From NCBI GenBank assembly GCA_023819525.1, contig JAMWCT010000001.1:1-37835 (forward strand): a stretch of DNA of 37,835 nucleotides, read 5' to 3'. This DNA comes from Candidatus Omnitrophota bacterium (GTDB taxonomy: Bacteria > Omnitrophota > Gorgyraeia > Duberdicusellales > 4484-171). A program made the position numbers and the translations under genes. Below the pieces are notes generated by a model that was given only the letters and a program-made list of their open reading frames with translations, did not search any database and was not told the origin of the DNA. Within the stretch, counting starts at the first letter, position 1; each line of letters begins with the position of its first letter. This document shows positions 10,150-37,835 of the stretch, one piece after another.

Positions 10150-11310
10150 ATGGCTGAGTGGATAGGTATAGGTAGGCGCGCACGTAGATGTTATGGATTT
10201 GATGAAATCGCACTTGTTCCGGGTAAAATTACAATAAATCCGGAAGAAGTTGATACCTCTTGGGAGTTTGCTGGAAAAAAATTTTCTGTTCCGATATTAG
10301 CAGCTGCAATGGATGGGGTAGTTGATGTGAATTTTGCCGTAGAGATGTCAAGGTTAGGTGGCATAGCGGTATTAAATTTAGATGGCATCCAAACAAGGTA
10401 CGAAAACCCCCAAGAAGTTTTAACAGAGATTACAACAGCAAATGCTACAGAGGCGACTAATTTAATTCAAAAAATATATTCTGCCCCTATTAAAGAAAAA
10501 TTAATTGGGAAGAGGATAGAACAGATAAAATCAAAGGGCGGATACGCTGCTGTGAGTTGTATTCCACAAAATGCTTCTCAATTTGCACCTATTGCTGAAG
10601 AAGCAGGTGCTGATTGTTTTGTTGTTCAGTCTACTGTAACCACAGTAAAACATATCTCTACTCAATATCAAGCTTTAGATTTACATAAGTTTTGCAAAGA
10701 AAGAAAAATACCTGTAATTATTGGAAATTGCGTTACTTATGATGTAACATTAGAATTATTAGAAACAGGTTGTTCTGCGATTCTTGTGGGGGTAGGTCCT
10801 GGGACATCTTGCACTACAAGAGGGGTTTTAGGTATAGGGGTTCCGCAGGTTACAGCTACTATTGATTGTGCTCAGGCAAGAGATTTTTATTATCAGAAAA
10901 CCGGAAAATATATACCAATCATAACCGATGGTGGAATGCGTAGAGGGGGAGATGTATGTAAAGCCTTTGCTTGTGGTGCGGACGCCGTAATGATAGGGTC
11001 AGCTTTTGCAAGAGCAAAAGAGGCTCCGGGAAAAGGTTTTCATTGGGGTATGGCTACTTCCCATAGCAATTTGCCAAGAGGCACAAGAATAGAAGTTGGG
11101 GTATCTGGAACTTTAGAGCAAATTCTTTATGGGCCAGCTACAGTAGATGATGGTTCTCAAAATTTAATGGGCGCTTTAGCAACATCTATGGGTTGTTTAG
11201 GTGTAAGAACTATAAAAGAGATGCATTTTGTAGAAATTATTATTGCTCCTTCAATACAAACAGAAGGAAAATTATTTCAGGTTATACAAAGAGTTGGGAT
11301 GGGAAAATGA
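10150..11310 (+). CDS. IMP dehydrogenase-related protein lacking the CBS pair (GuaB3-like)
   Basis: 386 aa. FDEIALVPG, catalytic-loop-like [47 protein letters not shown]. There is no CBS insertion. AGGAGG lies at 10141-10146. Confidence 0.8.
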
Positions 11311-12848
11311 AGAAGGATAAGATTTTAATTATTGATTTTGGTTCACAATATACACAACTTATTGCAAGAAGAATACGAGAACTTAAGGTTTTTAGTTTAA
11401 TAGAGCCGTGTAATATAGATATGGATAAAATAAAATTTATCAACCCCAAAGGCATAATACTTTCAGGAGGACCACATAGTGTATATCAAAAAAATGCACC
11501 ACAATTAAATAAAGAAATTTTAGAGTTAAAAATTCCAATTTTAGGTATCTGCTATGGTATGCAAATTTTAATGAAAATACTTGGAGGAGATGTAAAAGAA
11601 TCTCAACAACGCGAATACGGAAAAGCCCAGCTTTATATTGATGACCATACAGATTTATTTTTTTCTCTCCCAGCTAAAATCATTTGTTGGATGAGCCATA
11701 TGGATAAGGTTGTTAAGTTGCCTATAGGTTTTACTGTATCCGCCCATACAGATAACACTGTATTTGCCGCAGTAGCAAATAAAGAAAAAAAAATATATGG
11801 TGTGCAATTTCATCCAGAAGTCATCCATACACAAAATGGTTTACAAATTATCTCCAATTTCCTTTTTAGAATTTGTGAATGTTTTGCAAATTGGCAATTG
11901 GAAGATTTTGTCAATCAACAGATTAAAAAAATAAAAGAAAAAGTTAAAAACGAAAATGTAATTTGTGGATTAAGTGGTGGGGTTGACTCCTCAACAGCAG
12001 CTGTTTTGGTTCATAAAGCAATAGGTAGGCGCCTTAAATGTATTTTTGTAAATAATGGACTTTTGCGAAAAAACGAAGCTACAAATGTAATAGACATATT
12101 TTCAAAAAATTTTAAAATCAATCTACATTACGTAGATGCATCAAAGTTATTTCTAAATAAATTAAAAGGAATAACTGATCCTGAAGAAAAAAGAAAAATA
12201 ATAGGACATCTTTTTATAGATATTTTTGAGAAAGAAGCAAAAAAAATTAAAAATGCAAAATTTTTAGTTCAAGGCACGCTTTATCCTGATGTTATTGAAT
12301 CTACTTCTTTTTTTGGTGGACCAACCGCTCGCATAAAAACGCACCATAATGTTGGAGGGCTTCCTTTAGATATGAAATTAAAACTAATAGAACCTTTTAG
12401 GGAACTTTTTAAAGATGAAGTTAGAGAGATTGCAAAAATTTTAAAATTACCAGAACAAATAATTTATCGTCACCCATTTCCAGGGCCAGGTTTAGCTGTT
12501 AGGATAATAGGAGAAGTTACAAAAGAGCGCCTTGAGATTTTACGTCAAGCAGATTACATTTTAGAGGAGATTATTAAAAAAAGAGGTGTATATAAAGAGT
12601 TATGGCAGGCATTTTGTGTTTTATTGCCTTTAAAGACAGTTGGGGTTATGGGTGATAAGCGCACATATGAGTATGTTATTGCAATACGGGCTGTAAATAG
12701 TTTAGATGGTATGACTGCTGACTGGGCACATCTTGATGCTGATATTTTAAGTGAAATATCTAACTCAATAACAAATAAAGTAAGAGGTGTGAATAGGGTT
12801 GTTTTTGATATAAGTTCAAAACCTCCTGCAACCATAGAGTGGGAATAA
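11307..12848 (+). CDS. guaA: GMP synthase (glutamine-hydrolysing)
   Basis: [34 protein letters not shown]-loop SGGVDSS, C-terminal KPPATIEWE. The start was moved to the ATG at 11307 (ATGA overlap with the upstream stop). The track's 11193 start would add 38 non-homologous residues inside the upstream gene. Confidence 0.93.
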
Positions 12849-25366: not shown

Positions 25367-25396
25367 TTGACAATAAAATGCAAACTAAAGTATAAT
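25367..25396 (+). promoter_or_regulatory. Consensus sigma70 promoter TTGACA-N18-TATAAT heading the 13-gene accessory operon
   Basis: TTGACA at 25367-25372 and TATAAT at 25391-25396, both perfect hexamers. The first ATG (25406) starts 10 nt after the -10 and has no Shine-Dalgarno sequence. Confidence 0.55.
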
Positions 25397-25405
25397 GATT
25401 TCTGT

Positions 25406-26254
25406 ATGTATGAATTATACTGGAATTTAAAAGAGAAACCTTTCGAAAATACGCCTGATCCAAAATATATTTACTATTCTTCTTTGCATAAAGAAGCAAT
25501 CTCAAGACTTCTATATGCGGTGAGAGAAAGAAAAGGTGCTGCACTTTTAACAGGAGAGTATGGCAGTGGCAAGACCTTATTAAGTAGAATTCTTTTAGAA
25601 GAATTAGCCCAAGAACATATTTATCAGTATGTAGTTATTTTTAATCCAAGATTAGATGCGACAGATTTGTTGCGGACAATACTTATACAGTTATCAGAGC
25701 AAAACCAGTCAACTTCTAAAGCAGAAATACTTTCATCTTTATACAATATATTTTATTCTATTTATCGCTCAAATAGGCACACGGTAATAGTTATAGACGA
25801 AGCTCAAGCAATTATAAATGAGGAAGTTTTTGAAGAGTTAAGATTATTATTAAATTTTCAATTAAATAATGCATTTTTGCTTACTTTAGTTATTTTAGGC
25901 CAACCTGAATTAAAAGTAAAAATTGCAAAATTACCACAATTACTTCAGCGACTTTCTATACGCTATCATTTAAATGCCTTAAATGAAGTAGAGACAAAAG
26001 AGTACATTTTACATAGACTTTCAGTTGCAGGCGCAACAATACAGCCTTTCACCGAAGATGCCTTTAAAGATATCTATTTTTTTTCAGCCGGTATTCCAAG
26101 ACAAATTAATACTATATGCGATTTAGCATTACTTGTTGGTTATGGAGAGAATTTAAAGGAAATTACTAGAGATGTAATTTTAAAAGTGGCTGAAGATATA
26201 AAACCAACACCATCTTTATTAGAAAAACAGCAGGGTTTATATTTTGGAAAATAA
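25406..26254 (+). CDS. ExeA/GspA-like AAA ATPase (COG3267 type)
   Basis: MYELYWNLKEKPFENTPDPKYIYYSSLHKEAISRLLYAV matches the family N-terminus. Walker A GEYGSGKT, Walker B VIVIDEAQ, then LVILGQPEL and GIPRQINTICD. The start is set at ATG 25406. The track's TTG at 25367 is the -35 hexamer. Confidence 0.8.
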   Translation: MYELYWNLKEKPFENTPDPKYIYYSSLHKEAISRLLYAVRERKGAALLTGEYGSGKTLLSRILLEELAQEHIYQYVVIFNPRLDATDLLRTILIQLSEQNQSTSKAEILSSLYNIFYSIYRSNRHTVIVIDEAQAIINEEVFEELRLLLNFQLNNAFLLTLVILGQPELKVKIAKLPQLLQRLSIRYHLNALNEVETKEYILHRLSVAGATIQPFTEDAFKDIYFFSAGIPRQINTICDLALLVGYGENLKEITRDVILKVAEDIKPTPSLLEKQQGLYFGK

Positions 26255-26258
26255 ATAT

Positions 26259-27266
26259 ATGATTAAAATTTCCGATATTTTTGATAAACATAAAAAAAAT
26301 AAAATTGAAAACAAAGAAAAAGCAAAAGACTTAATTTCTAAAACAACCGATGCACCTGTCTCTTATTCTGAAGGCGATCAAGAAAGTGTTTCTTTGCAAG
26401 TAATTAATATAACTACCAACCTGATAGATTTAGCGCTTAAAATTTACAAACCGAATGCCCTTAATTTAGATTTAATAAATAAATTAAAAAACTGTATCAA
26501 TATGCTTGTAGAATTTAAAAATTTGGAAGATGATTTTTTAAAAGTATTTTTTAAAGACTATCCAGAAGACTCTACCTATTTAGTCTATCATATAGCAAAT
26601 ACTTCTATTTTAAGTTTAGAAGTCGCTAAAACTTTAAAGTATGATAACGAAAGGCTTTTTTATTTAGGTTTAGGAGCTTTTTTGCATAAAATAGGTTTAA
26701 CTACAATTTTAGACATAACCTTAGAAGATTCTCAATTAGAGCAAGCAAAAAGTGAAAAAATAAAGACACATCCTTTGGTGGGCAGTAAAATTTTAAAAGA
26801 ATTTGAAAAAGAATTTGATTCAACTACAATTAAAATTGTTGAGCAGAGTTTTGAAAGGATAGATAAAAGCGGTTATCCTTTAGGGATAGATGAACCAATA
26901 CCAGAAGCTCAAATAGTAAATATTGTCCAAGTATATGAGAGTTTGGTTCATAAAAGAAATTATCGGGAAAAATTTAATCCACTTAAAGCAATGAAAATAA
27001 TTATAGAAGATAAAGGTTTTGTGAATAATAAAATAAAAAAGGCATTAATTGAAAGGGTTGGTTTTTATCCACCAAATACACTCGTACTTCTTAATACAAA
27101 AGAAGAAGCAATTGTAATAGCAACAAATTTTAAAAATCCTTTAAGGCCGATAGTAAAAAAAATATCTACTCAAAATAAGATCCAAATTACAGAGCCAAAG
27201 ATTATTAATTTAGCCAAAGATACCCATTTTTATATTGAGAAAATTTTAACTCAAAATGGCCAATAA
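26259..27266 (+). CDS. Degenerate HD-GYP-like domain protein
   Basis: GAFLHKIG (HD replaced by HK), KTHPLVGSKIL, SFERIDKSGYPLGI (HHE replaced by SFE, GYP retained), IVNIVQVYESLVHKRNY (the DxxD position reads QxxE). The start is set at ATG 26259. The track start at 26244 is TTG. Confidence 0.6.
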   Translation: MIKISDIFDKHKKNKIENKEKAKDLISKTTDAPVSYSEGDQESVSLQVINITTNLIDLALKIYKPNALNLDLINKLKNCINMLVEFKNLEDDFLKVFFKDYPEDSTYLVYHIANTSILSLEVAKTLKYDNERLFYLGLGAFLHKIGLTTILDITLEDSQLEQAKSEKIKTHPLVGSKILKEFEKEFDSTTIKIVEQSFERIDKSGYPLGIDEPIPEAQIVNIVQVYESLVHKRNYREKFNPLKAMKIIIEDKGFVNNKIKKALIERVGFYPPNTLVLLNTKEEAIVIATNFKNPLRPIVKKISTQNKIQITEPKIINLAKDTHFYIEKILTQNGQ

Positions 27267-28962
27267 AAAGGTTTTTTTTGTTTCAATAAGTATTCTTTTT
27301 TTAGTTTTTGTTATCTCATATTATTTAACCACACTTATCTATAAAGAAAAATTTGATTCAGATTTTTTGCAATATTCTAAATATTTTGAAAAGACTACCA
27401 GAGAAAACGACGCGCTTAATTTAGCGAAAAAAATATTTGAAAGTGCACAATTTAAAATAAATGTTTTACAGGATAAAATATATCAATTAGAGAAAAAAAA
27501 TAAAAGTCTAATTCAAGAGATAAAAGATAAACAAAAAGAAATAGAAAAAATCAATCAAAATAAATCATTAGCGGAGAAAGAACTTAATCAGCTCTTAAAA
27601 GATAAAGTTTTAATAGATCAAGAGATTAAGAAACTAAAAGAAAAATTAACCAATTATGAAATAGATAATAGAAGATTGGCTGAAGAGAATTTAGTTCTAA
27701 AAGAGGAAATTGAAAAATTTCAAAATGAAAATTCAGCTTTAAATAAAACTGTAAATTTGCTAAAAGAAAATATAAATAATAAAGAGGCTGTAGAAAAAAA
27801 ACTTAAAGAAAGAGTTGTTTACTTAAACAATCTTTTGTTAGAAAAAGACAATTTAATAACTACAAAGAATGCTCAAATAAATAATCTTAATACAGTAAAA
27901 GTAAATTACGAAGAAAAAATAAATGAATTAATAGAAGAAAACTCTAATTTAAAAAAATCACTTTTGTCTTTACAGGAAGAATTATCTACAAAAAAATTAG
28001 AATTAACCGAATTATTAAAGCAAAAATATATGCAAAAACAGCAAAATTTAAAAATGCAGGAAACGATTAATTCTATATCAGCCACACTAAGCGAAAAAGA
28101 TCAAATGTTGCAAGCTACAGAAAGCGAAAATGAAGCTTTAAAAAGCACGGTTAAAAAACAAATTAAAGAATTTCAGGATTTGCAAAAACTTTATAATAAA
28201 GTTTCAACTGAGTATAATATATTAAATGATAAGTTAAAAAATTTAGAAGAAGAAAAAAACCAACTTCAAAGTCAATATTTAAACTATAAACTTGAAACAC
28301 AAAAACAACTAGAGGAAACTACCGCCAAATTGCTATCTACACAAAGAGAATTAAACAATTTAAAAAATGAATTAGAGAACCAAAAGCAACTTAATCTAAC
28401 AACAAATAATCAATTGTTACAGTTTACAGAAGAGATAAAAGAAAAAGAGGCAAGAATAGGAGAGCTTCAAAATCAAAAAACTTCCTTAGAAGAAGAAAAA
28501 TACACGCTTAATGATAAAATGAAAGACATACAAAACAAATATAATCAACTTTTGGTAAACCACAATAGTCTACAAGAAAAATTTTCTAATTTGCAAAAAA
28601 ATTTTGAAGAAATTAAAGTCGAAAAAGAAGCGCAGATAAATAAATTAATTGAGGAAGCCAAATTACTTAAGCAAGAAGTTTCTTTAAAAGAAAAAGCAGT
28701 TTCCAATTTAAAGGAACAATTTGAGCATTTAAACCAAAAATATATAGTAGTTTCCAAAGAAAATTTAGATTTAAACTCGCAAAATTATCAATTAAGGCAA
28801 CAGATAGATGAGTTAAATGTAAAAATAGATAATATTTTAAAAGATAAGGAGAAAACCATTAAAATAAAACAACAATTAAGTCCAAAAGTTACCAAAAAAA
28901 CTAAAGTAGAAGAGTTAAAAAATAAAGTTGAGGAAAAATTAAGAGAAATTATAGCTTTTTAG
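27256..28962 (+). CDS. Membrane-anchored long coiled-coil protein
   Basis: One N-terminal TM helix (VFFVSISILFLVFVISYYLTTLIY), then about 520 aa of E/K/L/N/Q-rich heptad-like sequence. No enzymatic motif is present. Confidence 0.6.
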   Translation: MANKKVFFVSISILFLVFVISYYLTTLIYKEKFDSDFLQYSKYFEKTTRENDALNLAKKIFESAQFKINVLQDKIYQLEKKNKSLIQEIKDKQKEIEKINQNKSLAEKELNQLLKDKVLIDQEIKKLKEKLTNYEIDNRRLAEENLVLKEEIEKFQNENSALNKTVNLLKENINNKEAVEKKLKERVVYLNNLLLEKDNLITTKNAQINNLNTVKVNYEEKINELIEENSNLKKSLLSLQEELSTKKLELTELLKQKYMQKQQNLKMQETINSISATLSEKDQMLQATESENEALKSTVKKQIKEFQDLQKLYNKVSTEYNILNDKLKNLEEEKNQLQSQYLNYKLETQKQLEETTAKLLSTQRELNNLKNELENQKQLNLTTNNQLLQFTEEIKEKEARIGELQNQKTSLEEEKYTLNDKMKDIQNKYNQLLVNHNSLQEKFSNLQKNFEEIKVEKEAQINKLIEEAKLLKQEVSLKEKAVSNLKEQFEHLNQKYIVVSKENLDLNSQNYQLRQQIDELNVKIDNILKDKEKTIKIKQQLSPKVTKKTKVEELKNKVEEKLREIIAF

Positions 28963-28965
28963 ATT

Positions 28966-29793
28966 ATGTTTTGGATAAATTTTTTGTTATTTTTTTTCTT
29001 TTTTCTACATCCTGCCTTCTCAGAAAACCTTATAGAAAAAATAAAAATAACATACAAAAAAGCAAATTATTATTATCAGCGTGGCGAATACCAAAAAGCT
29101 GAGAAAGAATATCTGGAAACTTTAAGGCTTATCGATGAATATAAGATTAACCTAAAAGATAAAAATCAGGCAAGCAGTAAAAAAGAAAAAACAACCTTAT
29201 ATACTATTGGCGAAGGCGATATTTTATATATTTCTGTCTGGCAAAATGAAGATTTAAATCAAGAGATAATTGTAAGACCAGATGGATATGCATCTTTTCC
29301 TTTAATTGGAGATTTAAAGATATCTGGTTTAACAATACCTCAATTAGACAAACTACTTACCGAAAAATTGAAAGAATATATACGTAGACCAGAAGTTTCA
29401 ATAACTTTGAGAAAAATTGGAGGAAGCAGGGTTGTTTTATTAGGTGAAGTTACTTGGCCAGGGGTATACCATGTTGATGGAACAAAGACGGTTTTAGAAT
29501 TAATCGGAATGGCCGGGGATTTTACTCTTGACGCGGTAAAATCAAGTGTGATTTTAATAAGAGGTGGATTTTTAAATCCAGAAGTTAGACGACTAAATAT
29601 AGCAAATGTATTAAAAGGAGACCTAACTGATAATGTTGTGCTTCAATCAGAAGATATAGTCTTTGTTCCAAAAACCTTTATTTCAAACCTAAACTATGTT
29701 ATAAATCAGATCCTTGAGCCGCTTTCAGGTGGTAGTATGGTTTATTCAAAATGGCATTCCTTTGACCGTCTGCCAAGAGAAAAAAAGCCTTGA
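28966..29793 (+). CDS. Polysaccharide-export (Wza-like Poly_export + SLBB) periplasmic/outer-membrane protein
   Basis: Signal peptide MFWINFLLFFFFFLHPAFS. YTIGEGDILYISVWQNEDLNQEIIVRPDGYASFPLIGDLKISGLTIPQLDKLL (Poly_export), then VVLLGEVTWPGVYHVDGTKTVLELIGMAGDFT (SLBB). There is no lipobox Cys. Confidence 0.78.
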   Translation: MFWINFLLFFFFFLHPAFSENLIEKIKITYKKANYYYQRGEYQKAEKEYLETLRLIDEYKINLKDKNQASSKKEKTTLYTIGEGDILYISVWQNEDLNQEIIVRPDGYASFPLIGDLKISGLTIPQLDKLLTEKLKEYIRRPEVSITLRKIGGSRVVLLGEVTWPGVYHVDGTKTVLELIGMAGDFTLDAVKSSVILIRGGFLNPEVRRLNIANVLKGDLTDNVVLQSEDIVFVPKTFISNLNYVINQILEPLSGGSMVYSKWHSFDRLPREKKP

Positions 29794-29800
29794 AAATAAA

Positions 29801-31636
29801 ATGTTTAAGGTTCTTCTATGTATCCCGCCAGATTACGAATATAGTTACCCACCTCTTGGGACAGCTTCGCTTTGCGGTTTTTTGAAAGCAAAAAAAATAG
29901 ATACCCTACAAATGGATTTAAACATACTTTATAGAAAATTTCTTTTAAATAAAATTGAAGCAGATTTTTTAGATACCCATCAAAAAAAGAAAATTTTAAA
30001 GCAAATTCTCTTTAATTTCTTTCATAAAAAATTAAAAGATAGATATTATTCTGATTTTTTACCAAGAAATACTGATAGAATTTTTCCATTTTTACCTTAT
30101 GAAAACAATTCAAATAGTTCCTTTTATTTTACCGAAAGACTACTTTCTTCTGAATATCTTTTTTATTATCTTTCTGATATCAAAGAAAATACTTTTTATC
30201 AATTTTACCAACAAGAAAAAATTTTAGATTTTTTGGATAAAGAAAAAATTAATTTATGTGGAATATCTGTTATCTCCCCTTCACAGGTAATTGCATCTTT
30301 AACCTTAGGTTTTTTAATTAAAAAGAACTTACCGCATATACATATAACTTTTGGTGGACAATGGGTGACTTTATATAGGAAGGCTTTACTTAAAAGAAAA
30401 AAATTTTTTTCCTGTTTTGATAGTTTAGTTGTCTTTGAAGGAGAAACCCCTCTTTATAGACTTTGCTGTATGTTAAAGCAAAAAAGAAAGTATTATATTA
30501 AAAATTTAATATTTAAAGAGACAAAAGAAGATTTTACCTATAACCATACTGAAGAAGACCTAAATAAATTGCCAACTCCAGATTTTGATGGCCTGCCTTT
30601 GAAAGAATACGACGCAAATGACTTTAAAACTATAACATTAACTTATGAAACCTCAAGAGGTTGTTATTGGGCAAGATGTGCATATTGCGTAGATTTACCT
30701 TTACCTAAACCAACTTATAGAAAAAAAGCAGCATATTTAGTTTCAAATGATATAAAAAAATTAAAGAAAAAGTATAAAGCAACAAATCTTCTTTTTAGCG
30801 ATCCAGCGCTTTCGCCGCGTCAAATGCTTGAGGTTTCAAAAGAACTACTAAAAAACCGAATAAAGATAAAATGGTGGTGTATGGCTAGACCAGATAGTGG
30901 TTTTAAGTATGAAATTTTTAAAGCTGCTTTTAGGGCAGGACTTACACATATAAATTTTGGCTTTGAAACAGCAAATGATAGATTGTATAATCTTCTTTCT
31001 AAAGGAACAAAATTAGAAATAGTTAAAAAAGTAATTAGAGATTGCAAAAAAGCAGGTATTTTAGTAGACCTGCAAACAATGTTAGGACTTCCAAAAGAAG
31101 GCTTTCAAGAAGGTTTAAATACAATAGAGTTTTTGGTAAAAAATAAAAAATACATCTTTAATGTTAGTTTCAATCTTTATTATCTTACCCCTCAAAATCA
31201 TATATTTTGTCAACCAGAAAAATATCAAATAGAATATAAGCAAAAATACCCATTTAGTTTTTTTATACCTTTTAGAAATAGAGAAGGCCTGACAAGAAAA
31301 GAAGCTTATCTACTTTGGTTACTTTATGAAAAACTTATCAATAAAGAAAAAACTTACAATTTAGGTCCTTTAGAATCTATTAAAATACCTAATTATATAG
31401 AAGAAAAAATAATTCGTTTTAAGTTGCTTGAAGAATCAATTAAATTGTATTGTCTTTTTGATACAAAATCTAAAAAATTTATAGTTATGGATAGAATAAG
31501 GAAGAATATGTTGAAGCTACTGGAGAATAAAAATTTTCACCATTTAGCAAAAGAGCAAATTGATTTTTTAAATTATCTTCTAAAAGAAAAATTTTTAAAA
31601 AAAACTCCAAAATATGGCCGAGAAACTGCTCTTTAA
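29801..31636 (+). CDS. B12-binding-domain radical SAM protein
   Basis: N-terminal KVLLCIPPDYEYSYPPLGTASLCGFL and ISVISPSQV (B12-binding Rossmann pattern). Radical SAM cluster region TSRGCYWARCAYC, followed by NFGFETANDR. The start is set at ATG 29801, 7 nt after the upstream stop. Confidence 0.75.
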   Translation: MFKVLLCIPPDYEYSYPPLGTASLCGFLKAKKIDTLQMDLNILYRKFLLNKIEADFLDTHQKKKILKQILFNFFHKKLKDRYYSDFLPRNTDRIFPFLPYENNSNSSFYFTERLLSSEYLFYYLSDIKENTFYQFYQQEKILDFLDKEKINLCGISVISPSQVIASLTLGFLIKKNLPHIHITFGGQWVTLYRKALLKRKKFFSCFDSLVVFEGETPLYRLCCMLKQKRKYYIKNLIFKETKEDFTYNHTEEDLNKLPTPDFDGLPLKEYDANDFKTITLTYETSRGCYWARCAYCVDLPLPKPTYRKKAAYLVSNDIKKLKKKYKATNLLFSDPALSPRQMLEVSKELLKNRIKIKWWCMARPDSGFKYEIFKAAFRAGLTHINFGFETANDRLYNLLSKGTKLEIVKKVIRDCKKAGILVDLQTMLGLPKEGFQEGLNTIEFLVKNKKYIFNVSFNLYYLTPQNHIFCQPEKYQIEYKQKYPFSFFIPFRNREGLTRKEAYLLWLLYEKLINKEKTYNLGPLESIKIPNYIEEKIIRFKLLEESIKLYCLFDTKSKKFIVMDRIRKNMLKLLENKNFHHLAKEQIDFLNYLLKEKFLKKTPKYGRETAL

Positions 31637-31988
31637 ACTTACAGGCTCAAGCATGTATCCATTAATAAGGGAGGGAAGTTATATTTTAGTTAAGCCAACA
31701 AAAAAAATTTTTTTTGGTGAACTTGTTGTTTTCAAAGAGGGCGATAAGATTATCTGTCACCGTTTAATTTTTAAAAAAAATCATTTTTTTTATTCTAAGT
31801 CTGATACTGAACTTTTTAGAATAGAAAAATTAAATATAGAAAATATTTTAGGAAAAGTGGTAATGGTTATAGATTTTAAAAAACGTATATTTTTAAATAA
31901 TTTTTTTTGGTATCTCAAAAGTTTATTATTTTTTTTCTTTACCCCAATTTTAGTAATATTTCTTAATTTTTTTAAAAAAAATGAATAG
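31614..31988 (+). CDS. S26B (Sec11/SipW, Ser-His type) signal-peptidase-like protein with a C-terminal TM helix
   Basis: GSSMYPLI (box B Ser13), GELVVF (box C), ICHRLI (box D with His49, not Lys), SKSDTE (weak box E). Hydrophobic tail FFWYLKSLLFFFFTPILVIFLNFF. There is no N-terminal TM or signal sequence. Confidence 0.6.
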   Translation: MAEKLLFKLTGSSMYPLIREGSYILVKPTKKIFFGELVVFKEGDKIICHRLIFKKNHFFYSKSDTELFRIEKLNIENILGKVVMVIDFKKRIFLNNFFWYLKSLLFFFFTPILVIFLNFFKKNE

Positions 31989-33411
31989 CATTTATATAGT
32001 TGAAGAGCACCATCAAGTTTTAAGAATATGGAGAAAGAAAAAAATTAAAAATTTAGATGTTTTGCACATAGATGCACATCTTGACTGGCAAGTTTTTCTG
32101 GCAAAACCTATAGAACAGATTTTAAGAGATTCAAAAACAATAAAACAACTAAAAGAAGAATTAGAAAACACACTTCTATACTTTCAATACCAAAAGAATT
32201 TAGGAGAACAAACAAATATAGGAAATTACCTATATCCAGCACAAAAAGAAAATATAATAAAAAATATCTGGTGGGTGGTTCCTTCAAAAAATTTATATAA
32301 AGATATAAGCTTAATAAAAAAATTTTTCTTTTATTTAAAAAAAGATTCTCGATTAGCAGAAAAACCAATTTTTAAATTAAAAAATAAAATTTTGAAAGTA
32401 AATTTTGCAGAGCAGGTTTTTTACATTTGCACACTTTATGACCTACCTAAATTTAAAGATGAGGTTATATTAGATATAGATATAGATTTTTTTGTAATTA
32501 ATAATTTAAAAAAAACAGACAATGTAACTGATATCGCAAAAAGAAAACTTTGGATACAGCCAAAAGAAGTAGCAACCCTCTTAAAAGAAAAAGTAAAAAA
32601 CTCTAAAATCATTACTATTTCTTATTCTACTAACGATGGTTTTACTCCAATAGAGTTTAGGTATATAGCTAGTGAACTGGCATTTTATTTTTCACCTCAA
32701 AAATTCAAAAATAGATTTTTAAAAAGTTTTAAAGCGCATATAAATTTTTTCGCATTTAAAGAAACAAAAAAAAGTTTTTACTATTGGCAAGCAGTCAAAT
32801 TAGATAAAGCTTATAGATTTAAAGATAATAACTTTGGTTTTCTTTATTTGAAAATAAAAAAATTTAATTTAGCTAAAAAAGAATTTGAAAATATTTTATC
32901 TGTAGACAAAACTAACCCAGCGGCTCTTTTAGGTTTAGGATTTATATATTTTCATAAGAAAAAATTAAAAGAAGCCAAAAAAAATCTTTATAAAGCTTAT
33001 TATTTTTCAAAAATTCAAAGATTTTTTTCTATCTACAGAAAAGCAATATTTCTTTTGGCTAAATTAGAATTTAGGTTAAAAAATTTTAGAGTATCTAAAA
33101 AATTTTTTTTAAAATTTATCAAAAGCGAATCAACTGAACCAGAGGCTTATTTTTATCTTGCAAGACTGCTCATTTTAGAAAAAAAATTTCTAAAAGCAAC
33201 CATTTACTTAAAAGATGCTGTAAAGTTAGGCTTGGAGGTTGATGGTTTATTTTATTTAGCAAAAATTTTAACCTTCCTAAAGAAAAACAAATATGATATA
33301 ATAAATTTTATAAATCAAAGAATAATCTTTATAAAAAACAAAAAATTAAAAAAGATAAAATATGTAAGAGAAATTTTAAAAAAATTTAAATATGCAGGAG
33401 ATAATCTATAA
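31981..33411 (+). CDS. Arginase/deacetylase-fold (UPF0489-like) domain fused to TPR repeats
   Basis: The N-terminus has IVEEHHQVL, LHIDAHLDW (D31-x-H33-x-D35) and ILDIDIDFF (D165/D167/D169), which mimic the ureohydrolase metal-ligand motifs. The C-terminal half has TPR-like repeats (AALLGLGFIYFHKKKLKEAKKNLYKAY, EAYFYLARLLILEKKFLKATIYLKDAV). Confidence 0.55.
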   Translation: MNSIYIVEEHHQVLRIWRKKKIKNLDVLHIDAHLDWQVFLAKPIEQILRDSKTIKQLKEELENTLLYFQYQKNLGEQTNIGNYLYPAQKENIIKNIWWVVPSKNLYKDISLIKKFFFYLKKDSRLAEKPIFKLKNKILKVNFAEQVFYICTLYDLPKFKDEVILDIDIDFFVINNLKKTDNVTDIAKRKLWIQPKEVATLLKEKVKNSKIITISYSTNDGFTPIEFRYIASELAFYFSPQKFKNRFLKSFKAHINFFAFKETKKSFYYWQAVKLDKAYRFKDNNFGFLYLKIKKFNLAKKEFENILSVDKTNPAALLGLGFIYFHKKKLKEAKKNLYKAYYFSKIQRFFSIYRKAIFLLAKLEFRLKNFRVSKKFFLKFIKSESTEPEAYFYLARLLILEKKFLKATIYLKDAVKLGLEVDGLFYLAKILTFLKKNKYDIINFINQRIIFIKNKKLKKIKYVREILKKFKYAGDNL

Positions 33412-33685
33412 AAAAAATCCTAATTTTGTAGCAAGAGAGATTGTCAATGAATTAGTCTTGGTTCCTATATATAAGGATACAAAAGAACTAAACTGTATTT
33501 ATACTTTAAATAAACCTGCTAAAGTTTTTTGGCAACTTTTAGATGGAAAAAGAACGATTTCGCAAATAAAAAAAGAACTCTTAAAAAAATTTTCTTCTAT
33601 AGATTTAGATAATAATTTTGAAAAGTTAATAAAAGAACTTCTAGAAATAAAAGCAATAAAAAAATCATATGAAACCAAAATTTAA
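33392..33685 (+). CDS. PqqD-family peptide chaperone (RiPP recognition element)
   Basis: 97 aa. FVAREIVNELVLVP...IYTLNKPAKVFWQLLDGKRTISQIKKELLKKF...LIKELLEIKAIK fits the PqqD beta-strand plus three-helix pattern. Confidence 0.8.
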   Translation: MQEIIYKKNPNFVAREIVNELVLVPIYKDTKELNCIYTLNKPAKVFWQLLDGKRTISQIKKELLKKFSSIDLDNNFEKLIKELLEIKAIKKSYETKI

Positions 33686-33866
33686 TCCAAAAATTACCAA
33701 AATCAAATTAAATCCAGAACAAGCAGTTTTAATCTGCAGTTGTTATCGCTCAGGAAGAGTTATAGCTACTAGTGGTACTCGTTCAAGCACTCGGGTTTGT
33801 GGAAGAGGAACTGTAAGAGGATATCCTAGATATGCAACCACAACAACCAGCAGAAGCTGGAGTTAA
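33669..33866 (+). CDS. Candidate RiPP precursor peptide (65 aa)
   Basis: MKPKFNPKITKIKLNPEQAVLICSCYRSGRVIATSGTRSSTRVCGRGTVRGYPRYATTTTSRSWS. The leader is Lys-rich. The core has 8 Arg, 3 Cys and many Ser/Thr/Gly, and ends in Ser. Its start overlaps the PqqD stop by 17 nt, and an rSAM/SPASM gene begins 7 nt after its stop. Core DNA is about 44% GC versus about 24% for the leader (hand count). Confidence 0.65.
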   Translation: MKPKFNPKITKIKLNPEQAVLICSCYRSGRVIATSGTRSSTRVCGRGTVRGYPRYATTTTSRSWS

Positions 33867-33873
33867 TTTTTAA

Positions 33874-34917
33874 ATGCCAGATGAGTTTTATAATTTTTTT
33901 AAAAAATTAGACAATAATCTTTTTATAAACCAAGCCCACCTTGAGATTACATATCGTTGTAACCTAGATTGCGTTTATTGTTATTGTTTAAAAAATTCTA
34001 ATGAAATTAGTACTAATCAATTTAAAAAAATAATTGCTCAGTTAAAGGATTTAAATATTTTTTTCCTTACATTTAGTGGTGGAGAACCTTTTTTAAGAGA
34101 GGATTTTTTAGAACTATATTTATATGCAAAGCAAAAAGGTTTTTTGATAAGTGTATTAACTAATGGAACGCTTTTTAATAAAAAAAATATAGGTGTTTTA
34201 GCAAAAGCACCTCCATATGTAATTGAGATAACTTTAAATGCAATAAGCCAAAAGATTTATCAAAAAATCACACAGACTAATTTTAAAGTAAAAAAAGTTT
34301 TAGAAAATATCAAATTTTTAAAGGAAAAAAATATACCAGTTAAAGTTAAAACTACTGTTTTGAATTTAAATAAAGATGAGTTAATAAAGATTAAAAACTA
34401 TGTGTTTTCTGTTTTAGGAAAACCAAAGAAAGGCTATCTATTTGGTTACGATTTTTATATTTATCCTAAAATTGATGGAGAGAAAACACCAATAAAATAT
34501 AGATTAAATTTTACTCAAATAGAGAATATTTTAAAAAAAGATAGGGATTTATGGCGAGATTGGAAAAAAGAACTGAAAAGAAATTTGCCAAAAATTAATT
34601 TAAAAAATAAATTTTTCTGCACTTTCCCACTACAAAATTTTGTTATCTCGCCTACAGGAAAATTAAAATTTTGTATATTTTCTACTAAATTCAGTCAAGA
34701 TATAAAAGAAAAACCTATTAATTTAACTCACAGAGAACTTCTAAAAAATTTAGAAAATTATTTTCACGAATATAAAAATTCTTGTTATTTTAATTGCAAA
34801 TTTAATAAAACCTGTTTTTGGTGTCCTATAAGGCAAGAACTTGAAGGTAAAAGCAATTTAGATTATTTTTGCGCTTGGGCAAAATATTTTTATAAAGAAA
34901 CAAAAAGATGCAGATAA
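33874..34917 (+). CDS. Radical SAM/SPASM peptide maturase, paralog 1
   Basis: CNLDCVYC (CX3CX2C), FSGGEPFLR, C-terminal CTFPLQNFVISPTGKLKFC (CX12GX4C), CYFNCKFNKTCFWC and a final YFC. Confidence 0.82.
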   Translation: MPDEFYNFFKKLDNNLFINQAHLEITYRCNLDCVYCYCLKNSNEISTNQFKKIIAQLKDLNIFFLTFSGGEPFLREDFLELYLYAKQKGFLISVLTNGTLFNKKNIGVLAKAPPYVIEITLNAISQKIYQKITQTNFKVKKVLENIKFLKEKNIPVKVKTTVLNLNKDELIKIKNYVFSVLGKPKKGYLFGYDFYIYPKIDGEKTPIKYRLNFTQIENILKKDRDLWRDWKKELKRNLPKINLKNKFFCTFPLQNFVISPTGKLKFCIFSTKFSQDIKEKPINLTHRELLKNLENYFHEYKNSCYFNCKFNKTCFWCPIRQELEGKSNLDYFCAWAKYFYKETKRCR

Positions 34918-35969
34918 AAGCTCAAAGTGATTTTTTTTATAAATTGCATAAAGAGGCAATAAAAAGAAGAATTCCTTTGAGAGTTATGTTTGAGATCACA
35001 TATAGATGTAATTTTAGCTGTCAATATTGCTATTTGCCAAAAAGCTATCGAAACATTAAAGAATTAAATAAAAAAGAGGTTTTTTCTATATTAAAAGATT
35101 TAGCAAAAGAAGGGTGTTTTTATTTAGGTTTTAGTGGGGGTGAACCTTTTTTAAGAAATGATTTTTTAGAGATATTAGAATTTTCTAAAAGGTTAGGATT
35201 TTTTATAACTATAAATACAAATGCTTCTTTAATTAACAAAAAAGTTGCAAAAAAAATCATTGATTTGGGCATAAATAAGATTGATATAAATATTATTAGT
35301 CTAAAAGAAGCTATTTTTAGAAAAGTTACAAAAAGTTTACGTTTTAATAAAGTTTTAGATGCTATTTATTTTTTAAAAAGTAAAATTCCTTTGGGATTTA
35401 AAACTTGTATAACAAAATATAATTTTAACCAAATAGAAAATATAAAAAAATTTGCTAAAAGTATGGGGGTTTTTTTAAGATTAGACGATAGACTAAGCCT
35501 TTGTTTAAATGGAGATAACCGTCCTTATAGATTTAGTATATATAAGATTGAAGACCTAGATTTAGATTTATATTTAGAGAAAAAAGTTTCAGTTAAAAAA
35601 TTTAAGGCTATAGATATATTTAGTTGTAAAGCAGGATTTTTACAATGCGCCATTAATCCGGCTGGTAAAATTAAAATATGTGTTGGCATAGATGCCCCTT
35701 TATATAGTTGTAAAAAAAATTTTAAAAGAGCCTGGCAAAGATTGGAAGATTTTTTAAATTTAATTAAAATAGATGATAGATTTAAATGTTTTAGATGTAA
35801 ATTAAAAAATTTTTGTGACTGGTGTCCCGCAAAGTCTTTTCTTGAAAATAAGGACTTTATAAGTTGCGATAAGGAAAGTAGGTTTTTTGCATATCAAGCT
35901 TACAAAAAATATTATGAGCAAACAAATATATTTAAAAATAGCAGATACAGTAGTTTTGTTGGAAAGTAA
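34908..35969 (+). CDS. Radical SAM/SPASM peptide maturase, paralog 2
   Basis: CNFSCQYC, FSGGEPFLR, CKAGFLQCAINPAGKIKIC, CFRCKLKNFCDWC and a final SC. Confidence 0.82.
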   Translation: MQIKAQSDFFYKLHKEAIKRRIPLRVMFEITYRCNFSCQYCYLPKSYRNIKELNKKEVFSILKDLAKEGCFYLGFSGGEPFLRNDFLEILEFSKRLGFFITINTNASLINKKVAKKIIDLGINKIDINIISLKEAIFRKVTKSLRFNKVLDAIYFLKSKIPLGFKTCITKYNFNQIENIKKFAKSMGVFLRLDDRLSLCLNGDNRPYRFSIYKIEDLDLDLYLEKKVSVKKFKAIDIFSCKAGFLQCAINPAGKIKICVGIDAPLYSCKKNFKRAWQRLEDFLNLIKIDDRFKCFRCKLKNFCDWCPAKSFLENKDFISCDKESRFFAYQAYKKYYEQTNIFKNSRYSSFVGK

Positions 35970-36822
35970 ATTTGAATATGCAAAGAACGACAAAGGCATA
36001 GCACCAGAGCGTTTCAGTAATTTTTTTTATAAAAAAGCAATACCGGATATAAAGATAGAGATACAAATAGTAGAAAAGTTCCCCCAAGACTTTTACAGGC
36101 CGGATGGTTTTTCAACAATTCACCCACAGGATAAGTCTTTATGTTGGCAATGGGAAGAAAAAAAAGATTATTTTATTTTTAGAAGTTTAGTAGAAGGTAA
36201 ATTTCAATTAGCACAAATTGAAAAAAATTTCAAAAATGTGAGATTTTTTGTCCTGCCACAAAAAAATAAATTTATATGGTTTGCCACAGATGTAATTTAT
36301 GATTTTTTACAAATACTTTTTTTAGTTTATTTTGCAAAAACAAAAAAAGGGATATTTTTACATGCAAGTGGTATAAATTTATATGGCAGTGGTTTTGTCT
36401 TTGCAGGAAAATCAGGCGTAGGAAAAACTACTTTAGCCAAACTTTGGAATAAATATTCTGATGCAGAAATTTTAAACGATGATAGGATAATTGTGCGAAA
36501 ACAAAATAAGCAATTTTTTATATATGGTTGCCCTTGGCATGGAGCTTTTAGCGATTATTTAAAATCAAGGATGCATCCAGCGCCTTTAAAAAAAGTATTT
36601 TTTATCTATCCGGCTAAAAAAAATATTCTAAAAAAGTTAAATTTTTTTGATGCATTTAAACTTCTATATCCGGCTATTTTTCCTGTCTTTTGGGATAGGC
36701 TTTCGTTAAATAATATATTTTTATTTTTAAACGATTTGTTAGAAAATATAGTTTGTTTCTCTTTAGGATTTAGAAAGACAAAGGATATAATTAAATTTTT
36801 TAAAGAAAAGTGTTTAAATTAG
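35914..36822 (+). CDS. HPr-kinase-like P-loop kinase
   Basis: IFLHASGINLYGSGFVFAGKSGVGKTTLAKLW...ILNDDRIIV matches the HprK C-terminal catalytic core (lHg..v...G.GvLi.G.SG.GKS..A..L......l..DD). The start is set at ATG 35914 (MSKQIYLKIAD). The track start at 35887 is possible. Confidence 0.72.
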   Translation: MSKQIYLKIADTVVLLESKFEYAKNDKGIAPERFSNFFYKKAIPDIKIEIQIVEKFPQDFYRPDGFSTIHPQDKSLCWQWEEKKDYFIFRSLVEGKFQLAQIEKNFKNVRFFVLPQKNKFIWFATDVIYDFLQILFLVYFAKTKKGIFLHASGINLYGSGFVFAGKSGVGKTTLAKLWNKYSDAEILNDDRIIVRKQNKQFFIYGCPWHGAFSDYLKSRMHPAPLKKVFFIYPAKKNILKKLNFFDAFKLLYPAIFPVFWDRLSLNNIFLFLNDLLENIVCFSLGFRKTKDIIKFFKEKCLN

Positions 36823-37835
36823 CTTATAAAAATTTTAGTCTTGCAACTCATATAAAAAGCATAAGTCTAAAAAAAATAATTTTTGCTCAATTTGATTTAA
36901 CTTATAAGTGTGATTATTCTTGTAATTACTGTTATACAATTTGTTTCAACAAAGAAAAATATTTGAAAAAAGAATTAGATACCAACAAAATAAAAGCTAT
37001 TTTAGATAAACTTTATAATGAAGGTATCCTATGGCTTACTTTTAGTGGAGGAGATCCATTAACAAGAAGTGATTTTTTAGAAATTTATAAGTATTCAAAG
37101 GAAAAAGGTTTTCTTATAAGTATCCTTACAAATGGTTATAGGATAGACTTAAAACTAATCGATTTTTTCAAAAAGTATAGACCCTTTTTGATTGAGATTA
37201 CTTTAAATTCTATAAATCCCAAAACTTTTAAAAAAATTATCCAAAAAAATTTAAATTCAGAAAAGGTGCTTTCTGTAATAAAAAAATTAAAAAAAGAAGG
37301 GCTACCACTAAAAATAAAGACCCAAGTTATAAAGAATAATTTAGATGAAATTCCAAAAATAAAAAAATTTCTTCAAAAACTAAATTTAAAATTTTACCCA
37401 TCTTCTATAATATATCCAAGACTAAATAAAAATAAATTTCCTTGCTCGTTAAGGATAGATAAAGAGAAGTTTTTCAAAAAAAATTTGGGTTGTAATCAAA
37501 ATTTTAAGAAACATTTTAAATTTTTTCCCTGCACAGTTTTGAATACAGAGGGAATTCAGATTGATCCTTATGGAAATGTTTTTCTATGCGAACTTATAAG
37601 AAAACCTAAAGTAAATATTTTAAGATGTGACTTAAAAACTCTATACAATAAACTTATAGATTTTTTAAAAGATTTAGAAAACAGGTATAAAGATAAATGC
37701 CTTTGTGCAAGATGTAGATATATATATAGTTGTATGTGGTGTCCAGGGAAGGCATATTTAGAGACAAATAGTTTTATAAAACCAATAGATTATTACTGCC
37801 TACAAAAAGAAATTTTAAATTATGGAAAAAGTATC
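36810..37835 (+). CDS. Radical SAM/SPASM peptide maturase, paralog 3 (GTG start; 3' end cut by the window edge; absent from the supplied ORF track)
   Basis: Hand translation gives (V/M)FKLAYKNFSLATHIKSISLKKIIFAQFDLTYKCDYSCNYCY...LTFSGGDPLTRSDFLEIYKYSKEKGFLISILTNG...CTVLNTEGIQIDPYGNVFLC...CLCARCRYIYSCMWC...YYC. The frame is open from the stop at 36801-36803 to nt 37835 (342 codons). The only plausible start is GTG at 36810. It is most similar to paralog 1. Confidence 0.8.
   Translation, partial: MFKLAYKNFSLATHIKSISLKKIIFAQFDLTYKCDYSCNYCYTICFNKEKYLKKELDTNKIKAILDKLYNEGILWLTFSGGDPLTRSDFLEIYKYSKEKGFLISILTNGYRIDLKLIDFFKKYRPFLIEITLNSINPKTFKKIIQKNLNSEKVLSVIKKLKKEGLPLKIKTQVIKNNLDEIPKIKKFLQKLNLKFYPSSIIYPRLNKNKFPCSLRIDKEKFFKKNLGCNQNFKKHFKFFPCTVLNTEGIQIDPYGNVFLCELIRKPKVNILRCDLKTLYNKLIDFLKDLENRYKDKCLCARCRYIYSCMWCPGKAYLETNSFIKPIDYYCLQKEILNYGKSI

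Follow-up and report, generated by a model that had tools for sequence, protein, structure and literature searches.

The window analysed here is a stretch of 37,835 nucleotides (nt) from the forward strand of contig JAMWCT010000001.1 (assembly GCA_023819525.1) of a Candidatus Omnitrophota bacterium, and the subject of this study is an HprK-like P-loop kinase (302 amino acids, positions 35914..36822, plus strand) that belongs to the Pfam ScmC family and was recognized from its open reading frame (ORF), motifs and homologues. The gene belongs to an operon whose order is Wza-like exporter, B12-binding radical S-adenosylmethionine enzyme (B12-rSAM), S24/S26 peptidase, a PF12640 protein with TPR repeats, PqqD, a 65-amino-acid peptide, rSAM/SPASM 1, rSAM/SPASM 2, kinase and rSAM/SPASM 3. 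An earlier interpretation made from the letters alone (the sequence-only reading) had placed the kinase between SPASM genes, and this is the arrangement found: one rSAM/SPASM gene occupies 34908-35969 upstream, and another begins at GTG 36810, with a 13-nt overlap with the kinase stop, and continues past the window end. The kinase ORF extends from ATG 35914 to the TAG at 36820-36822; use of TTG 35887, nine codons further 5', would give 311 amino acids instead of 302. Because 32 homologues start within a few residues of the ATG position and the conserved first strand (IYLKIADTVVLLES) follows directly after it, the ATG is the likelier start as judged from the alignment. The overlap with the upstream gene (stop 35969) is 56 nt from the ATG or 83 nt from the TTG, in agreement with the 56 nt or more proposed before, and the corresponding overlap in the relative L001 (78% identical) is likewise called as 56 nt.

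The kinase ORF holds LHASGINLYGSGFVFAGKSGVGKTTLAKLW ... NDDRIIV, which are the motifs that the sequence-only reading had quoted as an HprK-like P-loop core. Profile matches to HPr kinases were weak: Pfam Hpr_kinase_C (PF07475) gave 20.2 bits (gathering threshold 33.3), and among the NCBIfam models HprK_rel_B gave 29.8 bits (cutoff 200), ScmC TIGR04249 gave 21.4 (cutoff 125) and HprK TIGR00679 gave 19.5 (cutoff 240). A phmmer search of the PDB aligned the protein with HprK of L. casei from the P-loop to the DD stretch (E=0.029), such that LHA...GKSGVGKT...NDD of the window kinase was paired with MHG...GDSGVGKS...ADD and the Walker A motif, the His and the Asp-Asp were matched. A profile of the kinase family was uninformative when compared with the PDB by sequence, with P-loops of ABC transporters (E=0.0055) scoring better than HprK (E=0.025). 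An AlphaFold2 (AF2) model built with 33 homologues reached a pLDDT of 89.4 and a pTM of 0.87, and the best Foldseek matches of this model in the PDB were phosphoenolpyruvate carboxykinase (PEPCK) and HprK/P, with a probability of 1.00. The modelled fold is clearly of the HprK/PEPCK type, an assignment that is weak by sequence and firm by fold, and the earlier description of the core holds.

The catalytic residues of this fold are nearly invariant. Within a set of 69 kinase family members from many phyla, H150, K171 and D190 are kept in all 69 and D189 in 68, and the positions conserved in at least 68 members are H150, G170, K171, T173, L187, N188, D189, D190, P207, W208, G210 and N237. H150, K171, D189 and D190 are the counterparts of the His-Lys-Asp-Asp tetrad identified by mutagenesis as essential for lasso-peptide kinases (PMC9266682), and D189-D190 those of the Asp-Asp pair of PsmK, the change of which to Ala-Ala abolishes activity (PMC6993621).

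The weak HprK profile matches speak for a genuine HPr kinase/phosphorylase that would regulate carbon catabolism. The window kinase resembles HprK/P and PEPCK in its nucleotide-binding P-loop fold and in the His, Lys and Asp-Asp of the catalytic site, but differs from them in the absence of the regulatory N-domain, of an HPr/phosphotransferase system (PTS) and of the HprK signature loop, and in having another N-terminal domain and another context. The profile scan found no match to Hpr_kinase_N in the kinase, and no HPr, PTS, Asn-synthase-like cyclase or B2 protease among the 43 window ORFs scanned, as the sequence-only reading had maintained for HPr, the HprK N-domain, the PTS and the lasso cyclase. 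An invariant PWHG stands in the family where HprK has an EIRG-type signature, and the operon is shared with genes for peptides that are ribosomally synthesized and then post-translationally modified (RiPPs). Together with the HprK score of 19.5 bits against a cutoff of 240, these differences in score, domain, signature and context effectively refute a role as HprK/P.

Word-indexed searching returned 183 homologues of the kinase, nearly all of them "hypothetical protein" entries of Candidatus Omnitrophota metagenome-assembled genomes. A match to Pfam PF27840 (ScmC), which is a precomputed annotation and not a re-scored one, is recorded for the window kinase and for most of 120 listed homologues. 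A HMMER scan of 1.84 billion representatives yielded 10,823 clusters at E<=1e-3, 5,478 at <=1e-10 and 546 at <=1e-30. The cutoffs of ScmC (TIGR04249), HprK_rel_A/B and HprK were reached by none of 82 sampled close representatives and by none of six homologues from other phyla; with TIGR04249, the best of the 82 sampled representatives had E=7e-9, and six locus homologues scored 22.5-34.4 bits. Because the close representatives and the other-phyla homologues miss the NCBIfam cutoffs, the kinase clade is, on profile scores, a distinct unnamed branch of the HprK-related superfamily that falls under the Pfam ScmC model and not under the TIGR04249 equivalog. The nearest named arrangement is SynChlorMet, in which ScmC (TIGR04249; PF27840), an HprK-related protein of about 300 amino acids, is accompanied by a PqqD homologue (ScmD) and paired rSAM/SPASM proteins (ScmE and ScmF). 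However, the window proteins score 21.4 against 125 bits for ScmC, 23.2 against 100 for ScmD and 71.9 against 400 for ScmE, and ScmF was not among the top matches. The window cassette thus appears analogous to SynChlorMet in architecture, with genes that are not orthologous by these cutoffs. Literature searches found no papers on SynChlorMet, only unrelated acronyms for ScmC, and no paper joining an HPr kinase with rSAM/SPASM RiPPs.

The putative substrate is the 65-amino-acid peptide encoded at 33669..33866 (plus strand), whose leader is kept in 52 distinct homologues. Its leader is KPKFNPKITKIKLNPEQA, with a predicted cleavage between Ala19 and Val20. The peptide also has a VLxCxC[YFW] motif, a third Cys, a core rich in Arg and in Ser/Thr and, at the C-terminus, Ser65 within the ending ...SRSWS that had been described before. 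Residues 22-65 contain 16 Ser/Thr (8 S and 8 T), not the 18 first counted, and 8 Arg. The 52 homologues have in common the leader KPKF[KR]PxIT[RK][VI]KLNPEQAVL, then xCxC[YFW], a hypervariable core and a third, often a fourth, Cys. The last residue of the full-length distinct Omnitrophota precursors is Ser in 41 of 48 and Thr in the remaining 7, although the 15 residues before the end have a mean identity of 11% and fall into 38 independent tail clusters. The last eight residues are themselves rich in Ser/Thr (37.5%), with Ser at position -2 in 25 of the 48; taking this frequency of the tail, the probability of the C-terminal Ser/Thr by chance is about 6.5e-17. The GC-richer precursor ORF was also considered as a hidden RNA gene, and this was rejected: there were no tRNA or Rfam matches, and conservation of the ORF at the protein level extends over 50+ loci.

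A similar ending was observed far outside the Omnitrophota. In other phyla (Desulfobacterota, Nitrospirota, Aminicenantes and others), 23 unannotated candidate precursors of 50-75 amino acids were located in the gap upstream of the kinase gene, which measures 150-470 nt and occasionally about 1.4 kb. They follow the pattern K.Y.KPQ..QVKL..EEAVL..CK...C...C...GS; 22 end in Ser (20 of them in GS) and one in Thr. Examples from the set L039-L066 are L049 9326-9499, L053 9419-9592 and L048 9262-9453. For Omnitrophota and distant-phyla precursors alike, invariance is confined to the terminal residue, and no internal Ser/Thr position is conserved among precursors. As a separate observation, the YxxP of the distant-phyla candidates matches the canonical motif of lasso and LPP (linear polyphosphorylated peptide) leaders that is bound by the RiPP recognition element (RRE).

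Two groups of characterized systems bear on the function of such a kinase. In the lasso peptides paeninodin and pseudomycoidin the C-terminal Ser is the kinase site (PMC9266682, PMC6993621), and the nucleoside triphosphate (NTP) transferase PsmN adds hexoses to the lasso-peptide phosphate. The kinases PadeK, ThcoK, PsmK and SyanK resemble the window kinase in having an HprK-like fold without the HprK N-domain and a His-Lys-Asp-Asp tetrad, and the lasso systems share with the window cluster a strictly conserved C-terminal Ser(/Thr) of the precursor, a PqqD RRE, an NTP_transf_5 partner and an ABC exporter. In contrast to the lasso systems, neither the window nor the called genes of the syntenic loci L001-L003 contain a lasso cyclase or a B2 protease; here, leader removal is predicted to be carried out by a peptidase resembling signal peptidase I (SpI) and cross-linking by the rSAM/SPASM enzymes. 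The second group is the LPP system of Paenibacillus alginolyticus, composed of LppK, LppB, LppS, LppN and LppD (Popov et al., Nat Commun 2026, PMC13381572). Its core lies within loci for capsular polysaccharide and is described as confined to Bacillota; LppK places up to four phosphates on core Ser3, the S3A, S3T and S3Y variants being unmodified, and LppS, which has a preference for phosphorylated precursor, removes the leader with assistance of the RRE (PMC13381572).

The window cluster shares the five-gene LPP core, of which the RRE, the HprK-like kinase and the SpI-like peptidase are in the window and the NTP transferase and an exporter that resembles MsbA are in the syntenic L001, and it is also placed inside a polysaccharide locus (Wza in the window; Wzz, Wzy and flippase in L001-L003). 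The distance from the leader Pro to the cleavage (shown by a slash) is 12 residues in LppA (...FET/AQS), and is equal in the Omnitrophota (...EQA/VLx) and in the other phyla (...EEA/VLx); from this equal spacing, cleavage is predicted after Ala19. Against the characterized LPP proteins, a BLASTP comparison of the window PqqD with LppB gave only E=0.032. The two systems also differ. The precursor is FxPxI...KLNPEQA/VLxCxC here and YxxPxVLxHQxIxFET/xxS in LPP, and in the window leader (KFNPKITKIKLNPEQA/VLI) the equivalent of LPP Ser3 is Ile22. The phosphorylation site of LPP is therefore unavailable in the window precursor, and the equivalent position is non-hydroxyl in about half of the precursor homologues; the conserved hydroxyl residue here is the C-terminal Ser/Thr. 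The window cluster has in addition three rSAM/SPASM enzymes, a B12-rSAM and an arginase-like enzyme, and the Cys residues are conserved; with these putative cross-linking maturases the product is unlikely to be linear. Finally, the present systems occur in the Omnitrophota and other non-Bacillota phyla, as opposed to the Bacillota-restricted description of LPP. The supplements of PMC13381572 that were examined make no mention of radical SAM, SPASM or Omnitrophota.

On the observed fold, catalytic tetrad, gene set and invariance of the C-terminal Ser/Thr, and by analogy with the systems above, we lean towards the view that the enzyme, of the HprK/PEPCK superfamily (Pfam ScmC), acts in RiPP tailoring as a serine kinase and phosphorylates the C-terminal Ser/Thr of the precursor (Ser65). 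From these features we infer a phosphotransfer, its site, and the order of steps and decoration set out below. Ser65 is proposed as the site because the conserved hydroxyl is the kinase site both in lasso peptides (C-terminal Ser) and in LPP (Ser3), and here the C-terminal one alone is invariant. The paeninodin-type analogy offered by the sequence-only reading has gained in strength, given the near-invariant tetrad and the Ser/Thr at the end of 48 of 48 Omnitrophota precursors and 23 of 23 distant-phyla candidates.

An alternative that retains the precursor as substrate would move the phosphate to a Ser/Thr inside the peptide, close to the junction of leader and core as in LPP or in the Ser/Thr-rich tail, and possibly to several positions. 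The example of LppK, which modifies core Ser3 and not the C-terminus (PMC13381572), and the abundance of hydroxyl residues, with 16 Ser/Thr in the window core, the enriched last eight residues and the frequent Ser at -2, are consistent with it. The lack of any conserved internal Ser/Thr position, the Ile at the LPP-equivalent position of the window precursor and the non-hydroxyl residues there in about half of the homologues argue otherwise, as does the invariance of the terminal residue alone in both precursor types, and we regard an internal site as unlikely.

A total of 68 genome loci were recovered via the kinase. In the syntenic L001, rSAM 3 is followed by an ABC_membrane/ABC_tran exporter, an NTP_transf_5 protein, Wzz, Wzy and a flippase; the latter three are downstream in L001-L003, all of which also show the Wza synteny. 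Partner genes were counted by single-sequence phmmer in the 26 well-flanked loci (at least 6 kb on both sides), with the following results as lower bounds: PqqD in 25, any SPASM gene in 25, NTP_transf_5 in 18, an ABC exporter in 17 and an S24 peptidase in 13. Pfam confirmed NTP_transf_5 in L001, L048 and L072. The set of PqqD, one rSAM/SPASM, kinase, S24 peptidase and NTP_transf_5 recurs in loci of Elusimicrobiota, Desulfobacterota, Nitrospirota, Nitrospinota, Aminicenantes, WOR-3 and Anaerolineales, often adjoined by an ABC exporter and Wza/Wzz. A tblastn search of plasmids aimed at the lasso-kinase sequence gave kinase/PqqD/S24 modules of Prevotella and Butyrivibrio, in addition to irrelevant Parageobacillus and Streptomyces matches. 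The module of the Butyrivibrio fibrisolvens plasmid pNP243 (L072, 500-9610) has kinase, peptide, PqqD, S24, NTP_transf_5 and glycosyltransferases, and that of Prevotella sp. oral taxon 299 (L073, 7611-9255) has kinase, S24 and PqqD only; there was no rSAM or lasso cyclase within +/-8 kb of either module.

The position of the cluster inside a Wza/Wzz/Wzy/flippase locus, with glycosyltransferases interleaved in relatives, leaves room for a different substrate altogether. The kinase might act on a sugar, lipid or polysaccharide intermediate of the export locus, or serve as an ATP-binding scaffold, with the C-terminal Ser/Thr kept for rSAM chemistry or for export. Its fold is common to PEPCK, a small-molecule kinase; LppN function seems to need genes outside the LPP core; and rSAM/SPASM enzymes such as MftC are known to work on C-terminal residues. 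Yet the kinase is tightly linked to PqqD (25 of 26 loci) and to the precursor, which it often adjoins, and is translationally coupled to the maturases; the characterized HprK-like enzymes in a PqqD context all phosphorylate the precursor, and the invariant catalytic tetrad argues against a scaffold. A non-peptide role is accordingly given a small share of our confidence.

Several observations count against C-terminal phosphorylation of the precursor. The similarity of the kinase to HprK is below every curated sequence threshold, and its likeness to PadeK, ThcoK, PsmK and LppK is one of described features and not of direct sequence comparison. The LppK site is core residue 3, not the C-terminus, and 7 of the 48 precursors end in Thr, whereas LppK rejects Thr. 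All loci were retrieved via the kinase gene, so that kinase presence and a C-terminal Ser/Thr are not separable in this set. The invariant terminus could have another origin, as C-terminal residues can be a target of rSAM/SPASM enzymes too, for example of MftC on mycofactocin. The NTP transferase and the exporter are known from syntenic relatives, the window ending before them. In the distant Butyrivibrio module, which has no rSAM, Trp is the last residue of the candidate precursor, and the DD motif of the kinase is changed to GD.

In the mechanism that we propose for C-terminal phosphorylation, the PqqD protein would bind the conserved leader of the 65-amino-acid precursor, and the kinase, with ATP (or GTP), would attach at least one phosphate to the hydroxyl group of the last residue, a Ser/Thr (here Ser65). 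The three rSAM/SPASM enzymes would cross-link the Cys-containing core, while the B12-rSAM and the arginase-like enzyme may make further changes to the peptide. The SpI-like peptidase is predicted to cut off the leader after ...EQA19. The NTP_transf_5 enzyme, whose gene lies just past the window end in syntenic relatives, may decorate the phosphate as PsmN adds hexoses, and the MsbA-like ABC exporter would secrete the product, all within the polysaccharide-export locus.

Class III/IV lanthipeptides use a kinase-then-lyase logic, and the richness of the precursor core in Ser/Thr and Cys raises the question of whether phosphorylation is transient here as well. The phospho-Ser/Thr could be eliminated to dehydro-amino acids, followed by a lanthionine-like addition of Cys or by C-terminal hydrolysis leaving an amidated end. 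However, neither the window nor the syntenic loci gave a lyase or cyclase domain, the HprK-like RiPP kinases that have been studied to date yield stable (poly)phosphates, and the co-conserved NTP transferase hints at a phosphate that is retained and decorated. Phospho-dependent elimination, which the sequence-only reading had entertained, finds no lyase-type gene to carry it out and is very improbable.

A further-reaching idea concerns the fate of the phosphorylated peptide. Through the kinase/NTP-transferase pair, the C-terminal Ser of the rSAM-cross-linked peptide might come to bear a glycan in phosphodiester linkage, and the phosphoglycosyl peptide would then be handed to Wza/Wzz/Wzy, making the product a peptide-primed or peptide-capped surface polysaccharide and not a free antibiotic-type RiPP. 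We consider this doubtful. If true, the LPP/paeninodin core would be a pan-bacterial module of the cell envelope, ancient in origin (Omnitrophota, Desulfobacterota, Nitrospirota, Aminicenantes, Bacteroidota and Bacillota) and not a speciality of the Bacillota.

To our knowledge, no route to (poly)phosphorylated RiPPs other than HprK-like kinases is known, and these have been characterized solely in lasso peptides and, since 2026, in the linear LPPs of Bacillota. The present locus would combine such a phosphorylation tailoring core with radical-SAM/SPASM chemistry, in phyla that are uncultured and anaerobic. What appears new is the joining of an LPP/paeninodin-type phosphorylation core to rSAM/SPASM, B12-rSAM and arginase-like maturases, the spread far outside the Bacillota, and the C-terminal Ser/Thr rule. 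The suggestion of the sequence-only reading that the context is new for this enzyme family stands in part: the combination with rSAM/SPASM maturases appears new, but the ScmC family with PqqD and rSAM/SPASM was already catalogued and the LPP core has been known since 2026. The invariant C-terminal Ser/Thr is a clean comparative signal that points to one precursor residue. If the proposed C-terminal phosphorylation is true, it would supply the first functional hypothesis for the large uncharacterized ScmC/HprK-related family (>10,000 representative clusters), would extend LPP-like systems beyond the Bacillota, and would sharpen the question of why such peptides sit inside polysaccharide-export loci.

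The other genes of the cluster are all on the plus strand. The PqqD-type RRE (33392..33685) is a discrete protein that matches Pfam PqqD at 30.3 bits (gathering threshold 23.4). The candidate leader peptidase (31614..31988, 124 amino acids) is of the archaeal signal-peptidase-I-like S24/S26 type and a homologue of LppS, the SpI-like (SipW-type) leader peptidase of the LPP system; it matched Peptidase_S24 at 39.7 bits, TIGR02228 with E=6.8e-9 (below cutoff), and the characterized LppS over its full length by BLASTP (E=2e-8). Its GxS13MxP, H49-R50 and D64 are kept in 27-28 of 28 sequences, in agreement with the catalytic Ser/His/Asp of LppS. The three rSAM/SPASM maturases are encoded at 33874..34917, 34908..35969 and 36810..37835, with Radical_SAM scores of 85.5, 85.5 and 86.3 bits. 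The alignment of maturase 1 with SPASM families spans their full length (NirJ2 6-307/326, AlbA), the 3' end of maturase 2 overlaps the kinase start, and maturase 3, with its GTG start, has a frame open to the window end; its L001 orthologue has 333 amino acids.

Two predicted maturases remain. The protein at 31981..33411 (476 amino acids) combines a peptide-arginase-like (PF12640/UPF0489) N-domain (29.3 bits, gathering threshold 27) with TPR matches. PF12640 is a peptide arginase family that converts Arg to Orn (PMC12703449), and the protein is a candidate Arg-to-Orn maturase by domain content. Arg makes up 8.0% of precursor cores in loci with a PF12640 gene and 3.5% in those without (Mann-Whitney p=4e-5, a test that ignores relatedness and truncated flanks); in the window precursor, Arg accounts for 8 of the 44 core residues. 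The B12-binding radical SAM enzyme (29714..31636, B12-binding and Radical_SAM domains) has as its best NCBIfam match the RiPP maturation rSAM C-methyltransferase TIGR03975 (96 bits, below cutoff), which makes it a candidate peptide C-methyltransferase. It was found in only 4 of the 26 well-flanked loci and is therefore considered an accessory maturase.

Upstream of the RiPP genes, the block at 25367-29793 (plus strand) encodes an AAA_22 ATPase, an HD-domain protein, a 568-amino-acid coiled-coil protein and the Wza-like exporter. The last of these, a polysaccharide export protein (28966..29793, Poly_export and SLBB domains), marks the surrounding polysaccharide locus. The same AAA_22/HD/coiled-coil/Wza block is present in L001-L003, which implies that the peptide cluster occupies a fixed place in an envelope-polysaccharide locus. 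The rest of the window is made up of housekeeping genes (TGT, TrmD, L19, FolD, IMPDH, GuaA, DnaE, GlnRS and GroES) and the polysaccharide-export set.

A few variations were noted among the related loci. Many Omnitrophota loci carry two or three precursor paralogues, and shortened copies of 38-43 amino acids (L006 2576-2692, L010 3377-3496, L013 4612-4728 and L027 8920-9051) keep the leader and CxC but have lost both core and C-terminal Ser; they probably represent pseudogenes or breaks in the assembly. The gene set of the L072 module is also the one given in published "lasso" calls for B. fibrisolvens. A GT9 (heptosyltransferase-like) gene is inserted between the kinase and the third rSAM in L002 (10932-12074) and L037 (10783-11988), an insertion that fits glycosyl decoration of the peptide. 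In the deltaproteobacterial L048, a fusion protein of 350 amino acids (10500-11552) combines the S24-like peptidase with a GNAT acetyltransferase domain.

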